Shown here in pieces: positions 21,876-31,578 of a stretch of DNA of 36,583 nucleotides. The notes beneath the pieces were generated by a model. The model was not told where the DNA came from. It saw only the letters and a list, made by a program, of their open reading frames with translations, and ran no database searches. Origin of the DNA: a virus (taxonomy: Duplodnaviria > Heunggongvirae > Uroviricota > Caudoviricetes). Every line of letters begins with the position of its first letter. Position 1 is the stretch's first letter. The stretch is taken from IMG/VR virus record IMGVR_UViG_2585427727_000016. One strand, 5' to 3'. The position numbers and the translations under genes are program-made.

Positions 21876-23627
21876 ATGATTCAGGACGCTTTTGTGCGCC
21901 AGCGTGCGCGGCAACTTTACTGGCAGGGTTATCCGCCCGCAGAAATATCACGTCTGATGGGAATAAACCCGAACACGGTTTATGCGTGGAAAAAACGCGA
22001 CCAGTGGGATGAAACGCCACCCGTGCAGCGTGTCACGCAGTCCATCGATGCGCGCCTCATCCAGCTTACTGAAAAACAGAATAAAACAGGCGGTGACTTT
22101 AAGGAAATAGACCTGCTGACCCGGCAGCTTAAAAAGCTGCATGATGGCCAGCCGGATGTGATGGCCGCAGGAAAGAAAGGCCGGGCGAAAAAACTCAAAA
22201 ATCATTTCACGCCGGAACAGATTGCCGCACTGCGGGAAAAAATCATCAGCAGGCTGGAGTGGCATCAGCGGGGCTGGTTTGACTCCCTGACACTTTGCAA
22301 GGAAGCCGGGATACGTAACAGGATGATCCTGAAATCCCGACAGATTGGGGCGACCTGGTATTTTGCACAGGAAGCTCTGCTGATGGCGCTGCGTGACGAT
22401 GTGGCGCAACCTTACCAGCGTAACCAGATTTTTTTGTCTGCGTCGCGTCGTCAGGCGTTCCAGTTCAAAAGCATTATTCAGAAGGCCGCGGCTGAAGTTG
22501 ATGTGGAGCTGAAAGGGGGCGATAAAATCATCCTCTCCAACGGTGCAGAGCTGCATTTTCTCGGCACTTCTGCTGCGTCGGCACAGTCCTATACGGGCAA
22601 TTTTTATTTTGATGAATTTTTCTGGGTCAGTCGCTTTGCTGAACTGCGCAAGGTGGCTGGCGCTATGGCAACCCTCAGCGGACTGCGGCGCACCTACTTC
22701 TCCACGCCATCCACCGAAACGCACGAGGCATACGCCTACTGGAACGGCGACCGCTGGAACGAGAAAAAGGCCACGCATAAACGCCAGCGTTTTTCTGTGG
22801 ACTGGAAAACGCTGCATAACGGGCTTATCTGCCCTGACCGGACGTGGCGGCAAATTGTCACGCTGGAAGATGTGGTTAATCACGGCTGGAAACACACCGA
22901 TATTGACGAAATTCGTGATGAAAACACCGAAGACGAGTTCCGCAATCTCTATATGTGTGAGTTTGTCCGCGAAGGGGAATCGGCATTTAACCTGAATATC
23001 CTGATTGGCTGCGGTGTTGACGGATACGACGACTGGAAAGACTGGAAACCTTTTGCTCCCCGCCCGATGGGGAATCGTCCGGTATGGATTGGGTATGACG
23101 CAAACGGCAGCAGTGGCAACGGCGACAGCGGCGCTGTGTCCGTGGTGGTTCCTCCGGCTGTTCCTGGTGGCCGTTTTCGAACGGTGGAGACGCGACGCGT
23201 TCAGGGGCTGGAGTTTGAAGAACAGGCCAGAGTCATTGAAGAGTTCACGTGTCGCTACAACGTGGAACACATCGGCATTGATGTGACGGGCGGGAACGGG
23301 GAGGCTGTTTATCAGATAGTGAAACGGTTTTTCCCTGCTGCTATTCCGTACACCTTCACGCTGTCATCAAAACGGTCGCTGGTACTGAAAATGCTGCAAA
23401 TAATGCGTGCCGGGCGGTGGGAATACGATCGCGCCGAACGCGAGCTGGTCGCGGCCTTTAACGCCGTGCGTAAGGTGAAAACACCGGGCGGTTTTATCAC
23501 TTACGAAACGGACCGTGCGAGGGGGATCAGCCACGGCGACCTTGCGTGGGCAACCATGCTTGCTGTCATTAACGAACCAATTGGCGGCGAAGGGGAAAAC
23601 GAGCGTTTTACGGTTATGGAGTTCTGA
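21876..23627 (+). CDS. P: terminase large (ATPase) subunit P
   Basis: 583 aa; divergent from O; P2 P-like. Confidence 0.9.
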   Translation: MIQDAFVRQRARQLYWQGYPPAEISRLMGINPNTVYAWKKRDQWDETPPVQRVTQSIDARLIQLTEKQNKTGGDFKEIDLLTRQLKKLHDGQPDVMAAGKKGRAKKLKNHFTPEQIAALREKIISRLEWHQRGWFDSLTLCKEAGIRNRMILKSRQIGATWYFAQEALLMALRDDVAQPYQRNQIFLSASRRQAFQFKSIIQKAAAEVDVELKGGDKIILSNGAELHFLGTSAASAQSYTGNFYFDEFFWVSRFAELRKVAGAMATLSGLRRTYFSTPSTETHEAYAYWNGDRWNEKKATHKRQRFSVDWKTLHNGLICPDRTWRQIVTLEDVVNHGWKHTDIDEIRDENTEDEFRNLYMCEFVREGESAFNLNILIGCGVDGYDDWKDWKPFAPRPMGNRPVWIGYDANGSSGNGDSGAVSVVVPPAVPGGRFRTVETRRVQGLEFEEQARVIEEFTCRYNVEHIGIDVTGGNGEAVYQIVKRFFPAAIPYTFTLSSKRSLVLKMLQIMRAGRWEYDRAERELVAAFNAVRKVKTPGGFITYETDRARGISHGDLAWATMLAVINEPIGGEGENERFTVMEF

Positions 23628-24673
23628 TGAGCAGAAAAAATAAAAAAGTGCGTATGAGTTCACGCATTGATCTCGCTGATGCGCTCAGGAAAGAATCGTC
23701 GCTCAGTGCATTCACATTTGATGGTCCTTATCGCCTGACCGGGCATGATTTGCTGGACAATATGTACTGTGCTGATAACGGGCGGTGGTATGAAACCCCG
23801 GTGGACTGGTACGGTCTGGCAAGAGCTGCCCGGCAAACGTCCTGGCATCAGTCTGCGCTTTACTTTAAGCGCAATGTATTGCTCGGTTGCTATATTCCGC
23901 ACCCGCTGCTTTCCCGGCAGGATTTCTCGGCGCTGGCGCTGGACTGGTTTGTGTTCGGTAACGCATTTCTTGAGCTTCGAAGCAATATGCTCGGCGAACC
24001 GCTTAAATTACGGCACGCCCTGGCGAAATACATGCGACGCGGAAGCGATCTTGAATCATGGTGGTATGTTCAGGATGGCAAGGATGCGTTTCAGTTTCGC
24101 CCTGGCAAAGTGTGCCACCTGATGAATCCGGACATTAACCAGGAAATTTACGGCATGCCGGAATATCTTGGCGCATTACTCTCGGCCAGCCTGTCTCATT
24201 CGGCGGACATGTTCAGAAAACTGTATTACGACAATGGATCCCACGCCGGGTGCATCATCTATATCGGTGCAGCGCAGGTAAACCGCGAAAGCATGGACTC
24301 CCTGAAAGAAACGTTACAGGGTGCGCGTGGTGGTGGTGCGTTTAAAAACGTGCTCATCCATGCGCCCAACGGGGGCAAAGAGGGGGTGCAAATTTTGCCG
24401 TTCCAGCAGATCACCGCAAAAGATGAGTTCATGAATGTTAAGGCGGCATCCCGTGATGATGTGCTGGCTGCGCACCGTGTTCCACCGCAACTGATGGGGG
24501 CGATGCCGGGCGAAAAAAGTGCGTTTGGTGATGTGGAGAAGGCCGCGCGGGTTTATGCAATTAACGAGCTGATGCCCGTTATGGAGGCCATGAAGCACAT
24601 CAATGACTGGCTTGGCGAAGAGGTGATCCGTTTTAACTCTTATGCTCTTCTTGATGAAAAAACAGCCCCGTGA
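23627..24673 (+). CDS. Q: portal protein Q
   Basis: 348 aa; start overlaps P stop; P2 Q-like. Confidence 0.9.
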   Translation: MSRKNKKVRMSSRIDLADALRKESSLSAFTFDGPYRLTGHDLLDNMYCADNGRWYETPVDWYGLARAARQTSWHQSALYFKRNVLLGCYIPHPLLSRQDFSALALDWFVFGNAFLELRSNMLGEPLKLRHALAKYMRRGSDLESWWYVQDGKDAFQFRPGKVCHLMNPDINQEIYGMPEYLGALLSASLSHSADMFRKLYYDNGSHAGCIIYIGAAQVNRESMDSLKETLQGARGGGAFKNVLIHAPNGGKEGVQILPFQQITAKDEFMNVKAASRDDVLAAHRVPPQLMGAMPGEKSAFGDVEKAARVYAINELMPVMEAMKHINDWLGEEVIRFNSYALLDEKTAP

Positions 24674-24690
24674 TTGGGGCTGTCCTTTTT
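24663..24690. terminator. bidirectional intrinsic terminator between Q and the convergent orphan gene
   Basis: CAGCCCC-GTGATT-GGGGCTG hairpin flanked by an A-run upstream and a T-run downstream. Confidence 0.7.
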
Positions 24691-25213
24691 ACCAGAGTTG
24701 AACCATTTTCTGGGTGCCGTCAGGCTTGAGATTATCAATTTCAGAGAGAACGTAATATTGAATGGCTTCACAAACGGTGGTGTATGGTGAATTACCTTCT
24801 TTAAGTGGCACGATATTATTATTAACGCGAACCTGTATTTCATCGTTATACATTGCGATCGAAAGAGGAGTATGCACGAAGGCGACTTCGCCAGGTGTGT
24901 CGTCAACCACTGTCTCAATGCTGAAAATCAGTTTTCGCTCATCATTGCCGCCCCTTGCTTTGGGGGTAGCGGCAGGAATCTGAGATAAAGGCATTCTGCG
25001 AAACCCTTCAGTTGTTTCCAGTCCGCATGAAACGTAATGCTGGCGATTACCGTCGCTATCCGTCCATGTCTGTGATGGCAGCTCCAGAGAGATTTCATAA
25101 GCATCAACAATTCCCTGGGCAATTCGTACAAGTGGGGTCAGGTCTTCATTGCGGCGAAAACTCTCCTTTACCTGATCTCGTTTTTCTCGTAACTGCTTGT
25201 AATTAATGACCAT
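24689..25213 (-). CDS. hypothetical protein, hotspot cargo (174 aa)
   Basis: clean ORF with GGAGG RBS 8 nt before ATG at 25213; own promoter region and terminator; no motif recognised. Confidence 0.6.
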   Translation of the reverse strand: MVINYKQLREKRDQVKESFRRNEDLTPLVRIAQGIVDAYEISLELPSQTWTDSDGNRQHYVSCGLETTEGFRRMPLSQIPAATPKARGGNDERKLIFSIETVVDDTPGEVAFVHTPLSIAMYNDEIQVRVNNNIVPLKEGNSPYTTVCEAIQYYVLSEIDNLKPDGTQKMVQLW

Positions 25214-25312
25214 AAAACAGCCTCCATTGATTTCTTTGCTCGTATTTTGCACTTATGAAGTGTGGTCGGCAAGGTGCCGCATCACTGACGCGCTTCGCTT
25301 GTCTGCTGCTTC

Positions 25313-25341
25313 GCCGGGGCATAAAAAATTTATGCCCCGGC
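25313..25341. promoter_or_regulatory. 29-bp near-perfect palindrome (candidate operator) about 100 bp upstream of the 174-aa gene
   Basis: GCCGGGGCATAAA-AAA-TTTATGCCCCGGC read directly. Confidence 0.4.
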
Positions 25342-25741
25342 TCTCCAGCTCCTGTATCAATCAGATAATTTCACGACGCCTTCCAGTTTATCGCCACCAT
25401 CGACGGTCAGACTCTTACGCAATCCCACTACGTTGACTGTATGTTCTCGCTGCCTCAGTGCGATTTTGACGGCCTTACCTTTCACCCCATCAAATCAAAA
25501 GCCCTCACGCCTTTTTCATGCTCAGCGTGAGAAATATGGCCATTCTGTTGTGTCTCTGCGACATCGTTCAGGGAATGCTATTTACCCCCTGAAACGCGGG
25601 CTGTTCCCCCGTCACCTGCGCGTAGAAAAAACGCGTTTTTTGTGCACGTACGGATCCTTGACGGATCCAGCCGCCACGCGGGCCGGAAGTACAAAAAGTC
25701 GTTCAAAAAAATTGTGCAAACTTGTGCACTATCGTGCAAAC

Positions 25742-25766
25742 AAAAAAAAGCGCCTTATCGGCGCTT
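25742..25766 (-). terminator. intrinsic terminator after the 89-aa gene
   Basis: minus-strand hairpin GCGCC-GATAA-GGCGC followed by a run of 8 U. Confidence 0.7.
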
Positions 25767-25774
25767 CAAAAATA

Positions 25775-26044
25775 TCAATTGTTGCTGTGTATTAATCGCC
25801 AACCACGAACATATGCTTCATAAGCATCTCTGTGCCTTACAGTTCCAGCCTGGCTAAACGGAATGTTAGCTAAAACTAAATCATTCTGAGCCATAGCGCG
25901 TCCTTCAAGCGCATCTTTTATGCCTAGCTCAAAAGCACAGGCAGCGCATTTGTGCCGACCTTCTTGTCCTTGATATTCAGGGAGAGACAGAAATGTTGGG
26001 TTATAACGATGAGGGTTCTTGCAAATACCTGTTTTAGCCCGCAC
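25775..26044 (-). CDS. hypothetical protein, hotspot cargo (89 aa, GTG start)
   Basis: ORF with GAGGT RBS before GTG at 26044 and its own terminator; single CAAC motif; function unknown. Confidence 0.45.
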   Translation of the reverse strand: MRAKTGICKNPHRYNPTFLSLPEYQGQEGRHKCAACAFELGIKDALEGRAMAQNDLVLANIPFSQAGTVRHRDAYEAYVRGWRLIHSNN

Positions 26045-26174
26045 TTTATTTACCTCATAGGAAAAATATGCGTGCCTTTACAGAGGTGCGTGTAAGCAAT
26101 AAAATATACGACGCACATTTTGATTTACTTCGGAAGGCACGCATATCAGGTTAAGTGAGTCCGACCGAGTTCTA

Positions 26175-26207
26175 CGCCCCAATAGTTGCTGCTATTGGGG
26201 CGTTTTG
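26175..26207 (+). terminator. strong plus-strand intrinsic terminator with no annotated plus-strand gene upstream
   Basis: 11-bp GC-rich stem CGCCCCAATAG-TTGCTG-CTATTGGGGCG followed by TTTT. Confidence 0.6.
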
Positions 26208-26408
26208 CATGGACAATGCCGCGCAATTATCTTGTCGCTCACAATGCGAACGATCTTACAAAAAGGCACATTACTGTCAAGATAATTGATCGTTTTAATC
26301 GATAGATAATAGACAATCTATTTGTTTAACAGATCGATTATTGAAGTAAGTGCGCCAAATGGAATGATACTGTTTCTATAAATGTGAGCATTTTTCGCGC
26401 AGATGCTT

Positions 26409-26720
26409 TTACTCAGGAAATAACGCCCGGATATTCCCAGCCATCTGGCTGGTTATCTTAGCCACTGGTGCAGACTGTGCTTCAAACTTTTTTGAGCTGA
26501 TTTGTGTCACAGGTAACATCTCATCATCAGCCCATGCGGCCAGTCGGTAAGCCTCTGCCGGATTCGTCTTCAGAAGTGCCAGCCCGGCCAGAAAAGCCAC
26601 GCGTTGGCCGCTTTTGCGGGCTTCTGGTGTAAGGCTGTCCAGCCAGGCGCATGCTTCTCCTTCGTTCTTGACGGCAGCTGGCTTCAGATAGAAACTTATT
26701 CTTCTGGTTGGTGTCGTCAT
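26409..26720 (-). CDS. parR: ParR/StbB-like centromere-binding adaptor
   Basis: 103 aa; RISFYLKP...LDSLTPEARKSGQRVAFLAGLAL resembles the ParR N-terminal ribbon-helix-helix region as I remember it; AAGGAG RBS; 4 nt after the parM stop. Confidence 0.65.
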   Translation of the reverse strand: MTTPTRRISFYLKPAAVKNEGEACAWLDSLTPEARKSGQRVAFLAGLALLKTNPAEAYRLAAWADDEMLPVTQISSKKFEAQSAPVAKITSQMAGNIRALFPE

Positions 26721-26724
26721 TGGT

Positions 26725-27684
26725 TTACTCCTTGTTCATTGCGTACAGCCCATTAACCAGAGCAAAATGTGGCACCCCGTCCGTGATGAAAGTCGCATTA
26801 ACTCCGCAGGCTTCGCGGATAGCGGGTGCCACAATCTCCGCCCCTCCACCGACAACCATCACCCGCCCGTAACCGGAAAAACCCGCCAGCGCGCGGATCA
26901 CTCGTTGTTTCAGTGTCTCCTCCTTTTCACGAATAACCGCCATCAGGCTGTTGTAATGCGCGTCATTGTGAATGTGCTGGCGCAGCCAGGCTTCATCGTG
27001 ACGGTGCTCAATAATGGTATTGGCGATGTGGTGACTGGTACGCATACCGTTAGTGGCCATCACCGACAGCACGGCATCAGCCATCAGGGAAACGCCTACG
27101 TGTGGATCGCAAAACACCTGGCTGATACCTGCCAGCTGCCCCTGAACCTTTGCCACATCCAGCGTGGTTCCGCCCAAATCCACAATCAGCAGGGATTCAA
27201 ACGGACTCATGTCAGCCAGTGCCTTAAAGCCAGCCGGAATGGATTCAGGCATAACCCGCACGTTACGGATAGTGAATGCTTCGCCGTTCTGGTACTCCAC
27301 CGGGCGCATAACGTTCGCTTTTTTGCGGTTGATGTTGGCTATGTCCGGCTGTGCGTTTGTGTCGAAATACTCGCTCAGTGGCAGGGTGACAACCACATCC
27401 ACCTCCTGTGGCGTGATGCCTGATTTGACCAGCGCGTGATGAATGGCAATGACATTCACATCACTGTACTGGTATTGCGTGTCGGTCGTCTGGACAAAGC
27501 GATCGCTGACCGGATCAAAACCATAGCGCACGCCATCAAGCATGTAGTTCGCGGGCTGCGTGCCACCGAACGGCGCAGACCATTCCGACTTGAAGCTGTT
27601 CGGGCTGATGGCGTTGCGGCGTTCGCCGTTCTCAGTCCATGCCAGCTTGATGTTGGTGGAGCCGTCGTCGATACAAATTTTCAT
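26725..27684 (-). CDS. parM: ParM/StbA-family actin-like ATPase
   Basis: 319 aa; MKICIDDGSTNIKLAW...ISPNSFKSEW and YSDVNVIAIHHALVKSGI closely match the ParM N-terminal phosphate-binding motifs I remember from plasmid R1. Confidence 0.8.
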   Translation of the reverse strand: MKICIDDGSTNIKLAWTENGERRNAISPNSFKSEWSAPFGGTQPANYMLDGVRYGFDPVSDRFVQTTDTQYQYSDVNVIAIHHALVKSGITPQEVDVVVTLPLSEYFDTNAQPDIANINRKKANVMRPVEYQNGEAFTIRNVRVMPESIPAGFKALADMSPFESLLIVDLGGTTLDVAKVQGQLAGISQVFCDPHVGVSLMADAVLSVMATNGMRTSHHIANTIIEHRHDEAWLRQHIHNDAHYNSLMAVIREKEETLKQRVIRALAGFSGYGRVMVVGGGAEIVAPAIREACGVNATFITDGVPHFALVNGLYAMNKE

Positions 27685-27713: not shown

Positions 27714-27827
27714 CGTTTACGGGATTCTGAAATCCCGTTTTTGCCTGTTTTTTGCGCGCTTCATATATCGCTGCGCGTTTTTTGCTCATTTACGGGATTC
27801 GTGAGTCCCGTTTCTGTCTGTTTTTTG
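27714..27827. repeat. two tandem hairpin-containing direct repeats of about 40 bp (candidate centromere or terminator-like elements)
   Basis: 27714..27754 and 27787..27827, each ACGGGA(TT)-loop-(AA)TCCCGT followed by T-rich CTGTTTTTTG; first copy intergenic, second inside the 3' end of gene A. Confidence 0.6.
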
Positions 27828-30583
27828 TTTCCACTGGTCAGGCCACCCTGCAGCAGGTCTGCTTTGCGGCTGGCGCGTTCAGTGGTTTCACTGATTCTCT
27901 GTGCGTGCTCTGCGTCGCGGATGGCGCGCAGCATGTCAGAAAGCACGGTAACGGGTGTTTTCATGGTGTTCTGATCCTGCTGAAGTGCGGATGCCAGGCG
28001 TGCGGCGGCTTCGGGGTCTGATGCCCCCAGCTGTGCCAGATAGCTGGCGACCGGGTTATGGCGGATCTCCGTGCTGCTTACGCCGTGATTACGGCTCAGG
28101 TGCTGCCAGAGCTGCGTGATTCGGCTGTCCGTGCGGGTATCCGGTTTGCGTACAATTTCATATCCCTGCGGTGCAATGATGCTGCCGTCAACGTACAGGC
28201 TGCCGCCCCGTAGCAGGTGCTGCGTCTGCTGTTCACCGATATGCAGGCCGAGAGATTCGGCAGACTCCCGCCATTCTTTAGCGAGTAATTCGTGGTTATC
28301 AGGCAAAGGCCGCTGCTGTTTGCGGCTCTGTGTCCAGCTCTGCATTTCATCACTGCTGTTTTTTGCCTGTTTGTCACGAAGCGAACGCATCAGCGCCCGG
28401 CGTTCGTGCCGTTTCAGTGAGCGCATCCATTCGTTCACTTCAACGCCGTCAGGAAGCTGCGGCCACGGTGCTGGCCGTTCTTTCGACTGTTCTGTCCCGC
28501 TGTTGCCTGTTTCCTGTACACGGGGACAGTTATTGCCACGAGTCCAAGGGGCGGCAGGGCCGCCCTGAAGGTCAAAACCATTTTCGCGGGCGCTGTCTTC
28601 CGCTTCCGGTTTACGTCTTACCAGCTTCCAGTTATCCGGATGTGTGCACACACGGGAAGACTCCCCGATGAGTGGTGACCAGATCCCGTAAATCTGTACG
28701 CTCTGTTCGCCGTAATCGTTCAGCTCATCTGCGAGGTCGTAGGCGGTGCGAATCAGGTAGTCTTTGCGTGGAACAAGTACGCCGCCCTGTTTTTCAATGT
28801 AGGAGGCAAAACACCCGGCATCAGCGGCAGCGAGCACTGCATCCATTGCGTCATCCTTCAGCTGTTGCGGGCCTTCCGGGTTGCGTGCCATCTGGCTGGC
28901 AAGGCGGCGCAGTTCACGCCACACCTGACGGGAGGGGATGCCAAAGAACTGGAACTGGCGGACCCGGTGAAGGCGCGCCCAGCCGATGGCGCGCTCCACG
29001 CTCTCGGCCATTGATTTTCCGGTTTCGTGGTCAACGCGTGGCTTGCCCGTTTTCGGGTCGATACCATCCACGGCGCGGCTGTCCAGGTTCTTTCCGATGT
29101 AGGTGGCGATGTAGCTGGTCGGTGTGCCTTTTGAGCCGTCGACGTACTCTGCCTTAAAGCGTGGGGTAATATCATCACCCAGCTCGTGACGATCTTCCTG
29201 AATGGCAATATCGCGGGTGTGGGACACAATGGTGTCGATTTCTTCCGGATGAGCAAAGACCATCATATGCCAGTGCACGGTGCCGTCATGGTGAGGCTCC
29301 ACCGTGCGGATGCCATACCAGCGCAGGCCGTCGCGGTTCAGTTTCTTGCGGACCGCCGCAAAAAACGAGTTAACCAGGTAATCGCTGGAGTCGCGCATAG
29401 TGGCCCCGTTCCATTTGGGATTCGGATGACCGTTCTCCGTTGTTGCGTGGTATTTTGACGGGCAGGTGACAGTCAGAAACACCGCTCTGTCGCCACGGGC
29501 TTCGGCCAGAAGTTCCAGCCCCTTCATGGTGGCCATCATTTCTGCCTTACGGTGAACCGGGTTACTTACTCCCGCGTAATACACTGTCTCAAGATCAATC
29601 GTGAACCCGTCTTCGTTTTCCAGCATGAAACTTTTCAGGAAATCGCGTGTTTTCTCGCGCTGTGCGCGAAACTCGCTTAACGCATCCTGGCTCAGATAGG
29701 GCGATGTTTTTCTGGAAACCAGACAGGCGGCGCGGAGTTGTTCTTCTCTCCACTCGCAACGTAACAGCCACAGTTTGCGTTTCCACCATTCCGTACAGGT
29801 CAGGCGAAGGATTGCGCCCGGCAGCAGCTCCGTGTCTGGTTCGTTCCTCCGGCCTTTGTCTGTTGTCAGTGCGTCATAATGCGGAGGCATGGCGTGCAGG
29901 TGTAACGCCATGCGGGCCAGCATCTGATACGCCTTCAGCGTTACATCCATGGTCAGCTCGCCATCAGTCGCACCAAAGCCATCGCAGAGTTTTTCGAAGG
30001 TGCTGCTGAACATCGCCGCCGTCATGGTGGCCAGCGTCTGTATCTGGTGTTTGTTGAGCTGCGGCAGGTAAAGCAAATCGTCCAGGCGTTCGCGTCCGGC
30101 AAGGGAGCGATAACCCGGTGTCAGCCAGTGTCCGTCAGTGCGATCCAGACGTTCGAATATTTTGCGCAGGGTTCCGCGTGCATAGCGTTCCGCCTGCCAG
30201 CTCTTTTTGCCTTTCCGGCGATCAGCTTCCTGTTTTTTGCGCAGGAAGGAGAGGTGGCGAATAAGCGGATCGCGCAGATAGGACGGCAGCAGGCGCAGCG
30301 AGGCCATGGCTTCATCCACCGCGCCGCGTGCCTGTTTTCTGGCGTCTCCTGCCAGTGTGATGGTTTTGTCCTGTTTTTCCTGTGCGTCCAGGCTTTTATT
30401 AATCAGGTTGCCCAGCGGCGTGGCGGAGAACGCCGCATCAGCCATTTCCTGGCGGCGCTCGTTCTCTACCCGGTAGGCACCCAGCCAGGAGGAAAGCGCG
30501 GATTCAGGAGCGGGGATCCCCGTTCCTTCACGCCCCACTGCGTGGCGCGGTTGTTGCCAGTCCCTGATGTACTCTGCCGTCAT
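27761..30583 (-). CDS. A: replication initiation protein A (rolling-circle HUH endonuclease)
   Basis: 940 aa; HUH-like motif (VHWHMMVF) and catalytic Tyr motif (YIATYIGK) typical of P2-family gpA. Confidence 0.9.
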   Translation of the reverse strand: MTAEYIRDWQQPRHAVGREGTGIPAPESALSSWLGAYRVENERRQEMADAAFSATPLGNLINKSLDAQEKQDKTITLAGDARKQARGAVDEAMASLRLLPSYLRDPLIRHLSFLRKKQEADRRKGKKSWQAERYARGTLRKIFERLDRTDGHWLTPGYRSLAGRERLDDLLYLPQLNKHQIQTLATMTAAMFSSTFEKLCDGFGATDGELTMDVTLKAYQMLARMALHLHAMPPHYDALTTDKGRRNEPDTELLPGAILRLTCTEWWKRKLWLLRCEWREEQLRAACLVSRKTSPYLSQDALSEFRAQREKTRDFLKSFMLENEDGFTIDLETVYYAGVSNPVHRKAEMMATMKGLELLAEARGDRAVFLTVTCPSKYHATTENGHPNPKWNGATMRDSSDYLVNSFFAAVRKKLNRDGLRWYGIRTVEPHHDGTVHWHMMVFAHPEEIDTIVSHTRDIAIQEDRHELGDDITPRFKAEYVDGSKGTPTSYIATYIGKNLDSRAVDGIDPKTGKPRVDHETGKSMAESVERAIGWARLHRVRQFQFFGIPSRQVWRELRRLASQMARNPEGPQQLKDDAMDAVLAAADAGCFASYIEKQGGVLVPRKDYLIRTAYDLADELNDYGEQSVQIYGIWSPLIGESSRVCTHPDNWKLVRRKPEAEDSARENGFDLQGGPAAPWTRGNNCPRVQETGNSGTEQSKERPAPWPQLPDGVEVNEWMRSLKRHERRALMRSLRDKQAKNSSDEMQSWTQSRKQQRPLPDNHELLAKEWRESAESLGLHIGEQQTQHLLRGGSLYVDGSIIAPQGYEIVRKPDTRTDSRITQLWQHLSRNHGVSSTEIRHNPVASYLAQLGASDPEAAARLASALQQDQNTMKTPVTVLSDMLRAIRDAEHAQRISETTERASRKADLLQGGLTSGNKKQTETGLTNPVNEQKTRSDI

Positions 30584-31261: not shown

Positions 31262-31578
31262 GTGGCCCCTTGTGTAGTAAGTTGCGAAAACTCACCATCC
31301 AGAGCTGCGAAACTGTGGGTGGCGAGACGTACGAGGTTCGCAGTACCGGCTACACAAGAACCCGGCCCGACCGAAGTCGGCCCCGTACGCCCCGCCATAA
31401 TTCTGACGCGAAAAAAACGTGGCAATACAGTACGCACAAAAAAACCGCTGGCGCGGTTGTGCGCTTGTGTAGTCAGCAGGCTGCGAAACCCGGCACCCGT
31501 TTTATGAGGTGCAGCGGAAATGTAACCTGACTGATTGCGGCATGGCAAGCGGTTTTTTTGTGTGTGCATAGTGGTTAC
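31262..31578. repeat. non-coding region with iteron-like direct and inverted repeats (CTTGTGTAG / CTGCGAAAC units)
   Basis: CTTGTGTAGTAAGTTGCGAAAAC, GCTGCGAAACTG, GTTCGCAGTACCGGCTACACAAG (inverted), GCTTGTGTAGTCAGCAGGCTGCGAAACC; ends with a hairpin plus T7 on the plus strand. Confidence 0.5.

Follow-up and report, generated by a model that had tools for sequence, protein, structure and literature searches.

The window analysed here (the whole stretch of DNA, 36,583 nucleotides) is an E. coli prophage of the P88-like type (Xuanwuvirus, Peduoviridae; P2 family). On its plus strand, the terminase gene (21876-23627) is followed by the portal gene (23627-24673). On the minus strand lie a 174/187-aa gene of phrog_5091 (24689-25252) within its own cargo cassette (24649-25276), the 89-aa gene that is the subject of this study (25775-26044), the ParR/StbB gene (26409-26720), the ParM/StbA gene (26725-27684), and the gene for a 940-aa replication endonuclease (27761-30583). 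Between the two small genes is a non-coding segment of about 470 bp (25277-25746), the conserved cos-containing core of P88-like phages. Within this core, at about position 25700, falls the left end of the genome record of phage P884B11. The locus is thus located between gpA (replication) and gpQ (portal), beside cos, and fits the definition that Rousset et al. 2022 (PMC9122126) give of the cos-adjacent, gpA-gpQ hotspot in P2-like prophages. In Table S5 of that paper, the arrangement “StbA + Plasmid_stab_B + hypothetical” is listed, in which WP_001390707 is the hypothetical protein; within the accessible parts of its text and supplementary tables, no activity assay of the 89-aa gene was found.

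The 89-aa coding sequence starts with GTG (26044-26042), which is the first start codon downstream of an in-frame stop in the open reading frame listing, and ends with TGA (25777-25775). By direct reading of the sequence, a Shine-Dalgarno motif, GAGG (26056-26053), precedes the GTG with an 8-nt spacer. The start position agrees with the homologues, in which 2 to 6 residues precede the first Cys. An intrinsic terminator (25737-25767, minus strand) consists of a GAAGCGCC-GATAA-GGCGCTTT stem-loop and a run of eight T residues. Its hairpin begins 8 nt past the TGA, at the junction between cassette and backbone, and according to the terminator scan, the stem (25767-25747) has 8 pairs, 5 of them G-C, with a loop of 5, and is followed by TTTTTGTTTG. 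Seven terminator-like sites are present in the region, compared to 2.8 expected, and the one belonging to the 89-aa gene has the longest T run. The first-pass annotation had described a GTG-initiated gene with its own ribosome binding site and a dedicated terminator on the minus strand, and both parts of this description hold. In RefSeq, the identical 270-nt coding sequence is annotated as WP_001390707.1 in some genomes, while the same DNA is left unannotated in others.

Comparison by blastn with related prophages that lack the gene revealed that the backbone homology ends at position 25746/25751 and restarts exactly at the parR stop codon (26409). These breaks define a cargo unit of about 660 bp (25747-26408), consisting of the terminator, the open reading frame and 365 bp of upstream DNA. 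The cassette, which has the cos core to its left and the parR stop codon to its right, is swapped for different genes in related prophages: in strain S103EC and phage P88, the same site holds other cargo, and other P88-like prophages carry, for example, a ClpX-type zinc-finger protein or one of several hypothetical proteins. The hotspot in the window is divided by the cos core into two independent cassettes. A survey of 5,426 complete E. coli genomes located the conserved core (25277-25746) in about 1,140 of them. The 89-aa cassette was present in 166 of these core-bearing genomes, always complete and 95-100% identical; the carriers include O157 and O111 strains, and the hotspot arrangement is one of the common unannotated ones. 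As had been proposed from the sequence alone, the gene occupies a prophage hotspot and is an independent cargo gene, with its own terminator and a replaceable cassette flanked by conserved backbone. With these two features of a moron present, it can be described as a cargo gene (“moron”) that terminates its own transcript in the cos-proximal hotspot of a P88-like, P2-family prophage, for which the promoter is a candidate only.

This candidate is a sigma-70 promoter (26280-26253, minus strand) with the arrangement TTGACA-16-TAAGAT, which matches the consensus, its sole basis, at 10 of 12 positions. Promoter-like sites are not enriched in the region (3 versus 2.8 expected from shuffles). If this promoter is used, the transcript would carry a putative leader of about 200 nt (26045-26246, minus strand), which is predicted to be strongly structured: its folding z-score is −4.65, and none of 200 shuffles folds equally well. 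Nucleotides 26175-26202 are predicted to form a hairpin and 26066-26146 a long stem, which is followed by a U run just ahead of the ribosome binding site. Three GATC sites (at 26252, 26288 and 26332, spanning 26252-26335) are located in the candidate promoter region, and one of them overlaps the candidate −10 hexamer (TAAGATC). Nowhere else in the 36.6 kb of the window do three GATC sites fall within 100 nt; since chance alone would yield about one such grouping over this length, the cluster is a lead rather than evidence. On the opposite strand, a candidate antisense small RNA of about 95 nt (feature 26077-26208, plus strand) would start from a promoter-like sequence, TTTACA-17-TAAAAT (26077-26105), and end in the hairpin at 26175-26202 followed by UUUUG, the two together covering 26175-26207. 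It would be complementary to the leader of the 89-aa mRNA. No Rfam family matched the leader or the candidate antisense RNA; the only hits were below threshold, of the terminator-hairpin type, to ctRNA and sar (E about 0.1).

The protein matches phrog_3941 with an E value of 6.3e-49, residues 4-89 aligning with positions 1-86 of the 86-position profile. An initial word-indexed protein search had returned only two near-identical matches and was uninformative alone. Exhaustive phmmer, by comparison, found 172 representative clusters homologous to the 89-aa protein, and a profile search found 1,598 clusters, none of them informatively named. Seventeen columns are invariant in the family (C8, H12, L21, P22, Q25, R30, H31, C33, C36, A37, G41, S64, Q65, R70, H71, A77 and G81), and the protein encoded in the window retains every one of these residues. 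The 89-aa open reading frame is a genuine gene because of this full-length phrog_3941 match, these two sets of clusters and these invariant columns. The label “orphan”, under which the gene had been introduced, does not apply, as the protein belongs to a large, cross-phylum family with a strong restriction-modification (R-M) and defence context. In the database copies searched here, the protein matched no Pfam, NCBIfam or PADLOC model. With the threshold relaxed to E values of up to 1, it matched neither Lar/Ral nor the Ogr/Delta zinc-finger activators in Pfam and NCBIfam, nor any helix-turn-helix (HTH) family in Pfam.

Residues 15-47 and 55-87 are homologous to each other (hhalign probability 96.8%, E 2.8e-10), which indicates that the domain, about 80 residues long, is a tandem duplication of a unit of about 35 amino acids. 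The unit follows the pattern LPxSQxGxxRHKxxxAYxxGY, and its two Cys residues, C33 and C36, are confined to the first copy. Together with C8 and H12 of an N-terminal Cys-x3-His knuckle, these residues plausibly form a putative Cys-His-Cys-Cys zinc site. An AlphaFold model computed from the single sequence (pLDDT 44) was discarded, and only the model based on a 61-sequence alignment was used. This model is confident (pLDDT 88.6, pTM 0.82) and predicts a zinc-finger-like helical domain, in which a loop holds C8-x3-H12, while C33 and C36 are placed where a helix (34-46) begins. This arrangement may be of the treble-clef type, in which a knuckle supplies two ligands and the first turn of a helix the other two. 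Foldseek searches of the PDB and BFVD returned nothing below an E value of 0.5, and a profile search of PDB sequences returned no match.

The best PDB fold match, at an E value of 1.1, was ribosome modulation factor (RMF, 2jrm), and 5 of 45 family members gave sub-threshold matches to the RMF Pfam model (best E 0.0016). Both proteins share the helix motif AxxxGYxxGxxG. However, RMF has neither the Cys-His-Cys-Cys site nor the RHK and SQ motifs, and homology to RMF (PF04957) was rejected, as hhalign gave a probability of 5.5% over only 15 columns. No description of the present zinc-finger module was found in the literature on its neighbouring domains. Judged from its sequence, the 89-aa protein is a solitary copy of an undescribed, putatively zinc-binding finger domain composed of two repeats.

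Parts or all of this domain are also found fused to other domains, most commonly to nucleases. A family of more than 1,000 proteins begins with two copies of the first repeat unit and ends with a NOV_C (DUF3883, PD-(D/E)xK) nuclease. All four NOV_C fusions sampled adjoin a D12 methylase, three of the four lie inside extended DpnII operons, and two of those sampled from DpnII operons adjoin a DndB-like protein. The whole domain is also found at the C-terminus of DndB inside DpnII operons (four loci). Further fusions involve HNH and HNH_2 nucleases, a Swt1-type HEPN domain and, in one case, an HTH-WYL regulator. This variety of partners suggests that the module is a sensing or targeting part that has been joined to many effectors.

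To describe the genomic context of the family, we analysed 80 loci drawn from genomes of many phyla; they are the top-scoring ones for a profile that has the E. coli 89-aa protein as its first sequence. Open reading frames were called, the neighbours were clustered and named by Pfam, and the loci were then re-scanned with HMMs built from the clusters. At 44 of the 80 loci, the family gene adjoins R-M components of the adenine-methylase type: a D12 methylase, a DpnA-type N6_N4 methylase, the DpnII endonuclease, PDDEXK_11, or a 425-aa DUF6996/6997/7226 protein. The D12 (Dam/DpnM-type) methylase was a neighbour at 36 loci by clustering, and the methylases paired with PDDEXK_11 and DUF6996/7 have a putative GATC specificity. 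As the three endonuclease families found beside the family gene are mutually unrelated, the element that these loci share is the adenine methylase. The same R-M arrangement was seen in metagenome contigs and on a Lactiplantibacillus plasmid. In the converse comparison, the family gene was nearby at only 8 of 80 PDDEXK_11 R-M loci, including loci with ample flanks, and the module is therefore not an obligatory subunit; a role as the obligatory specificity subunit of the PDDEXK_11 endonuclease was ruled out on this ground.

The loci that lack a linked methylase have a distinct taxonomic distribution. Of these 36 loci, 22 are from the Enterobacterales, Vibrionales, Alteromonadales, Pasteurellales or Orbales, as compared to none of the 44 linked loci (Fisher p = 1.4e-10, a value that ignores phylogeny). 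These five orders carry a chromosomal Dam that methylates GATC. In these gammaproteobacteria, the family gene is often the first of an operon of typical defence genes, among them DUF4062, a Pycsar-like cyclase, an AAA_15/21 ABC ATPase, DUF2971 and HEPN domains, and other loci are islands that also hold integrases, transposases, toxin-antitoxin pairs, or TIR and macro-domain genes. DUF3644, one of the families encountered, belongs to the HEPN group and is found embedded within R-M operons (PMC3710099); HEC-08, a DUF3644 protein, provides phage defence that is abolished by mutation of the HEPN-motif histidine (bioRxiv 10.1101/2024.01.29.577857). In the window, the 89-aa gene stands alone, with no adjacent methylase and endonuclease, and no methylase HMM matched in the near-identical copies fetched from E. 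coli and prophage contigs. The association of the family with Dam/DpnII-type R-M systems and with nuclease fusions is the main new lead of this work.

No k-mer was common to 44 non-redundant upstream regions that could represent a conserved operator. Autoregulation across the family through GATC sites in its own promoters was ruled out, as GATC occurs upstream at 2.0 per kb versus 3.2 per kb in the whole loci.

Homologues were present in only 8 of 50,697 phage records, and those whose contexts were examined come from prophages or from lambdoid/P22-like phages. The homologue of a P22-like Salmonella phage is downstream of cI, between cI and N, the interval that holds rexAB in lambda. A Providencia phage encodes its homologue on the opposite strand, in the interval that separates the Q antiterminator from the lysis genes. 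Both positions are classical for accessory genes expressed in the lysogen. Taken together with the gene's own terminator in the window, these lysogen-type positions in two phages suggest that the gene would serve the lysogen rather than the lytic cycle. Some copies are decayed or disrupted, as the one in phage 503458 is partial and strain CH4793 carries an IS1 element in the cassette.

On the basis of sequence and context, the 89-aa protein probably takes part in phage-host or restriction conflict. Most likely among the specific readings, though short of an even chance, is that it is a nucleic-acid reader tied to GATC methylation, which is carried alone as a conflict gene expressed in the lysogen; the broader claim of a nucleic-acid-binding conflict module is more likely than the claim of GATC reading. 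Zinc binding, DNA binding, methylation reading, lysogen expression and any phenotype are inferences, and the proposed ligand follows from these considerations: polar residues that are nearly invariant across phyla, with no common upstream motif and no GATC enrichment, fit a universal ligand better than they fit the operators of sequence-specific repressors; linkage to a methylase in hosts that lack Dam, with none in hosts that have it, points to the reading of GATC methylation on DNA; the two-fold pseudo-symmetry would suit a 4-bp palindrome, which again points to GATC; and the nuclease fusions point to DNA as the ligand.

According to this reading of GATC methylation, the two pseudo-symmetric repeats would contact a single, universal ligand through their near-invariant Gln, Ser-Gln and Arg-His-Lys residues. 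This ligand would most likely be DNA, read by the adenine-methylation state of GATC, with methylated DNA being taken as self. In other bacteria, the module would be the sensing or targeting part of nucleases and defence operons. In an E. coli lysogen, where the cell's own DNA is Dam-methylated, the lone protein might bind under-methylated DNA that is either incoming or belongs to a fast-replicating foreign element; the bound DNA would then be interfered with, or restriction would be tuned. Its role would be that of a lysogenic-conversion or defence-modulating gene, not that of a regulator of the 174-aa gene. The exact effect of a lone prophage copy, whether exclusion of under-methylated DNA or tuning of restriction, is much less certain than the other parts of this proposal.

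Several observations count against GATC reading. Upstream GATC sites are not enriched and no k-mer is shared; the module is dispensable for PDDEXK_11 systems; no structural homologue is at hand from which a function could be transferred; the protein is a lone binding domain without an obvious effector; and some copies decay or are disrupted. A more ambitious version of the proposal sees in the family a DNA reader of a new class. It would be a single-chain zinc finger with pseudo-symmetry that recognizes the palindrome GATC by its adenine-methylation state, acts as a self/non-self sensor for many effectors and works only where self DNA is Dam-methylated, the free prophage copy marking or blocking under-methylated foreign DNA in the lysogen. 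We regard this version as speculative and rather unlikely as a whole.

Among the alternatives, the one that survives best, although we consider it unlikely, is that the protein is a transcription regulator of defence operons, similar to C proteins or BrxR/CapW, in which case the prophage copy would be an orphan autoregulator that may act in trans on host or incoming operons. This would explain why the gene is small and often the first of its operon, 9-60 nt upstream of effectors as diverse as a cyclase, an ABC ATPase, DUF4062, HEPN-DUF3644 and R-M genes, and it agrees with the single fusion to an HTH-WYL regulator and with the GATC-rich candidate promoter and long structured leader of the cassette in the window. 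However, sequence-specific regulator families are not expected to keep their polar residues near-invariant across phyla while having no common upstream motif. In addition, the gene is convergent with the R-M genes at nine loci, or is the last gene of its operon, and the prevalence of nucleases among the fusion partners is not what a regulator would predict.

Somewhat less probable still is an anti-defence function, in which a free copy of the sensor domain would compete with the zinc-finger nucleases, or the protein would alleviate GATC restriction to protect phage DNA in the manner of Ral or Lar. These two small phage proteins for restriction alleviation provide precedents, and a small, phage-borne gene beside cos, whose product is the module that also serves as the N-terminal part of nucleases, would fit such a role. 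Yet most copies of the family are bacterial and lie within or beside R-M operons, whereas phage records with a homologue are the few noted above, with the contexts examined being of the prophage or temperate type at lysogen-type positions. Moreover, the DNA of E. coli phages is already Dam-methylated and therefore resistant to DpnII-type enzymes, and in Pfam the protein matches neither Lar nor any other known anti-restriction family.

The dominance of the D12 methylase among the neighbours, whichever endonuclease is present, and the concentration of unlinked copies in Dam-bearing lineages could also be accounted for if the protein worked together with adenine methylases of the D12 class, which in E. 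coli would be host Dam, and modulated methylation rather than reading DNA. We find this improbable, as the fusions to nucleases, HEPN, WYL and DndB and the methylase-free operons are hard to explain by such a partnership, and no fusion to a methylase was seen.

A much weaker possibility is that the protein regulates, or is the partner of, the neighbouring 174-aa gene. The two genes are on the same strand, 520 bp apart, and family members elsewhere often precede an effector gene, but the strong terminator and the 470-bp cos core intervene. The 174-aa cassette (24649-25276) was found in 397 of the approximately 1,140 core-bearing E. coli genomes, and both cassettes occurred together in 74 genomes compared to 58 expected (odds ratio 1.6, p = 0.005), a mild increase that shared prophage lineages could account for. 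Mostly, the two are apart: 92 of 166 copies of the 89-aa cassette are without the 174-aa cassette, and 323 of 397 174-aa cassettes are without the 89-aa gene. Of the two, phage 520873 carries only the 89-aa gene and strain S103EC only the 174-aa gene, indicating that the genes are separate units and not an operon. The first-pass annotation was thus correct that the two genes, each in its own cassette, do not form an operon; its suggestion that the 89-aa gene might regulate its neighbour is weakly backed by the mild co-occurrence, and the co-occurrence analysis it recommended gave a slight excess within a pattern of predominantly separate occurrence. Finally, that the open reading frame arose by chance or is a functionless, decaying remnant is scarcely credible, for although RefSeq annotates identical DNA inconsistently and the copies in phage 503458 and strain CH4793 are damaged, the conserved family is matched over its full length with all invariant residues retained, a ribosome binding site and a terminator are present, and the cassette is nearly identical in all 166 carrier genomes.

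If the reading of GATC methylation is correct, a domain with no Pfam, NCBIfam or PADLOC model in the copies searched would be a widespread component of bacterial immunity, with over 1,500 clusters of solitary proteins and over 1,000 in which it is fused to a nuclease. Through this domain, Dam-type methylation would be connected to PD-(D/E)xK and HNH nucleases, HEPN RNases and cyclase-based systems, and there would be a testable route for sensing of methylation state outside the classical restriction enzymes. In the P2-family hotspot of E. coli, one of the common, unannotated cargo arrangements would gain a function as well. Should the protein prove to be only a regulator, a non-HTH class would still be added to the regulators of defence operons.

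Comparison with known systems places the gene as follows. In P2 itself, the cargo of the hotspot is old and tin (PMC9122126). The gene described here resembles them in occupying the same locus between the replication and portal genes, where content is variable among related prophages, and differs in that its product has no homology to old, tin or any PADLOC model. The hotspot, and the protein as a hypothetical one, were already known from that source. R-M controller (C) proteins and BrxR/CapW are likewise small and located beside or at the head of R-M and defence operons, and the one WYL fusion adds to this likeness. However, the 89-aa protein has no helix-turn-helix and no Pfam match, being instead a putative zinc finger with near-invariant polar residues; and unlike the C proteins, the family has no shared C-box-like operator in the 44 upstream regions and varies in orientation and position. 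Modification-sensing restriction enzymes, such as DpnI and the SRA-HNH enzymes, combine a reader with a nuclease. The protein in the window differs from them in having no nuclease, and its DNA binding is putative. Since the operons of the fused proteins also encode protective methylases, these fused proteins are unlikely to be methyl-dependent. The architecture itself is nevertheless similar, with a small N-terminal module fused to a PD-(D/E)xK (NOV_C) or HNH nuclease in a context of GATC methylation.

The putative leader of the 89-aa zinc-finger gene (25775-26044, minus strand) overlaps two possible RNA elements. On the minus strand, positions 26066-26146 hold a long, imperfectly paired stem (AUAUGCGUGCCUU...AAGGCACGCAUAU) and then UUUUU, 20 nt upstream of the start codon; this stem may act as an attenuator or as an insulator against read-through from parMR. 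On the plus strand, 26077-26208 may encode an antisense small RNA about 95 nt long, to which the leader is complementary, with a promoter-like site (TTTACA-17-TAAAAT) and a terminal 13-bp hairpin followed by UUUUG. The fold z-score of this candidate was -3.4, and searching it against Rfam gave only sub-threshold matches, to ctRNA and sar.

Annotation of the 89-aa gene varies among its copies. Among the E. coli genomes that match 25752-26408 (hits H65-H76) and the homologue loci L004 and L005, RefSeq records it as the CDS WP_001390707.1 in some, while DNA that is 100% identical carries no RefSeq CDS in others, for example in E2863, 95JB1 and RIVM_C037134. The copy in phage 503458 is partial and unannotated, and in strain CH4793 an IS1 element is present inside the cassette that carries the gene.

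Within the conserved cos core that borders this cassette, a direct repeat, ACGGATCC-TTG-ACGGATCC, occupies positions 25650-25671; it contains two GATC sites and is adjoined by the presumed cohesive-end region. A second, independent cargo cassette (24649-25276), found in 397 of 5,426 E. coli genomes, sits in the interval separating the portal gene from the cos core and carries the 174/187-aa gene. The product of that gene belongs to phrog_5091, and no match to it was obtained in Pfam, NCBIfam or PADLOC. Family matches also revealed a plasmid-type partition module, ParM/ParR (StbA/StbB), complete and on the minus strand (26409-27684), with the replication endonuclease directly upstream of it, in an integrated P2-family prophage; Rousset et al. 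(PMC9122126) include the module in the hotspot content. At 31315-31512 on the same strand, adjacent matches at the Rfam gathering level to the C4 antisense RNA (31315-31402, 83 bits) and to the Hfq-binding RNA isrK (31438-31512, 65 bits) presumably mark where the prophage controls its immunity or anti-repressor.

The homologue of the 89-aa gene was also found within other gene arrangements. Vibrio chromosomes and one V. campbellii plasmid carry it as the second of four genes in a compact cassette (5741-7856 in L081, 4743-6859 in L233 and 5741-7544 in L073), with intergenic gaps of about 10 nt or short overlaps. The genes encode, in order, an 80-aa protein, the zinc finger, and proteins of 344 and 187 aa, the last two being replaced in an alternative layout by a Pycsar-like cyclase (240 aa) and a 185-aa protein. 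At four other loci (L012, L016, L042 and L057), a DUF3644 HEPN gene that forms part of an R-M operon lies immediately downstream of the homologue. HEC-08 has the same DUF3644 domain, and mutating its HEPN-motif histidine abolished the phage defence that it gave (bioRxiv 10.1101/2024.01.29.577857).

Extended DpnII operons, which may represent an undescribed composite defence system, were seen at loci L098, L102, L103 and L021, from a Flavobacterium genome and uncultured-bacterium contigs, one of them a Chitinophagaceae MAG. They encode a D12 methylase, the DpnII endonuclease, a protein of about 165 aa (apparently embedded in the membrane in L021), a DndB-like protein, a zinc-finger-NOV_C nuclease and a DpnA methylase. 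The pairing of the DndB-like protein with the nuclease recalls a split GmrSD.
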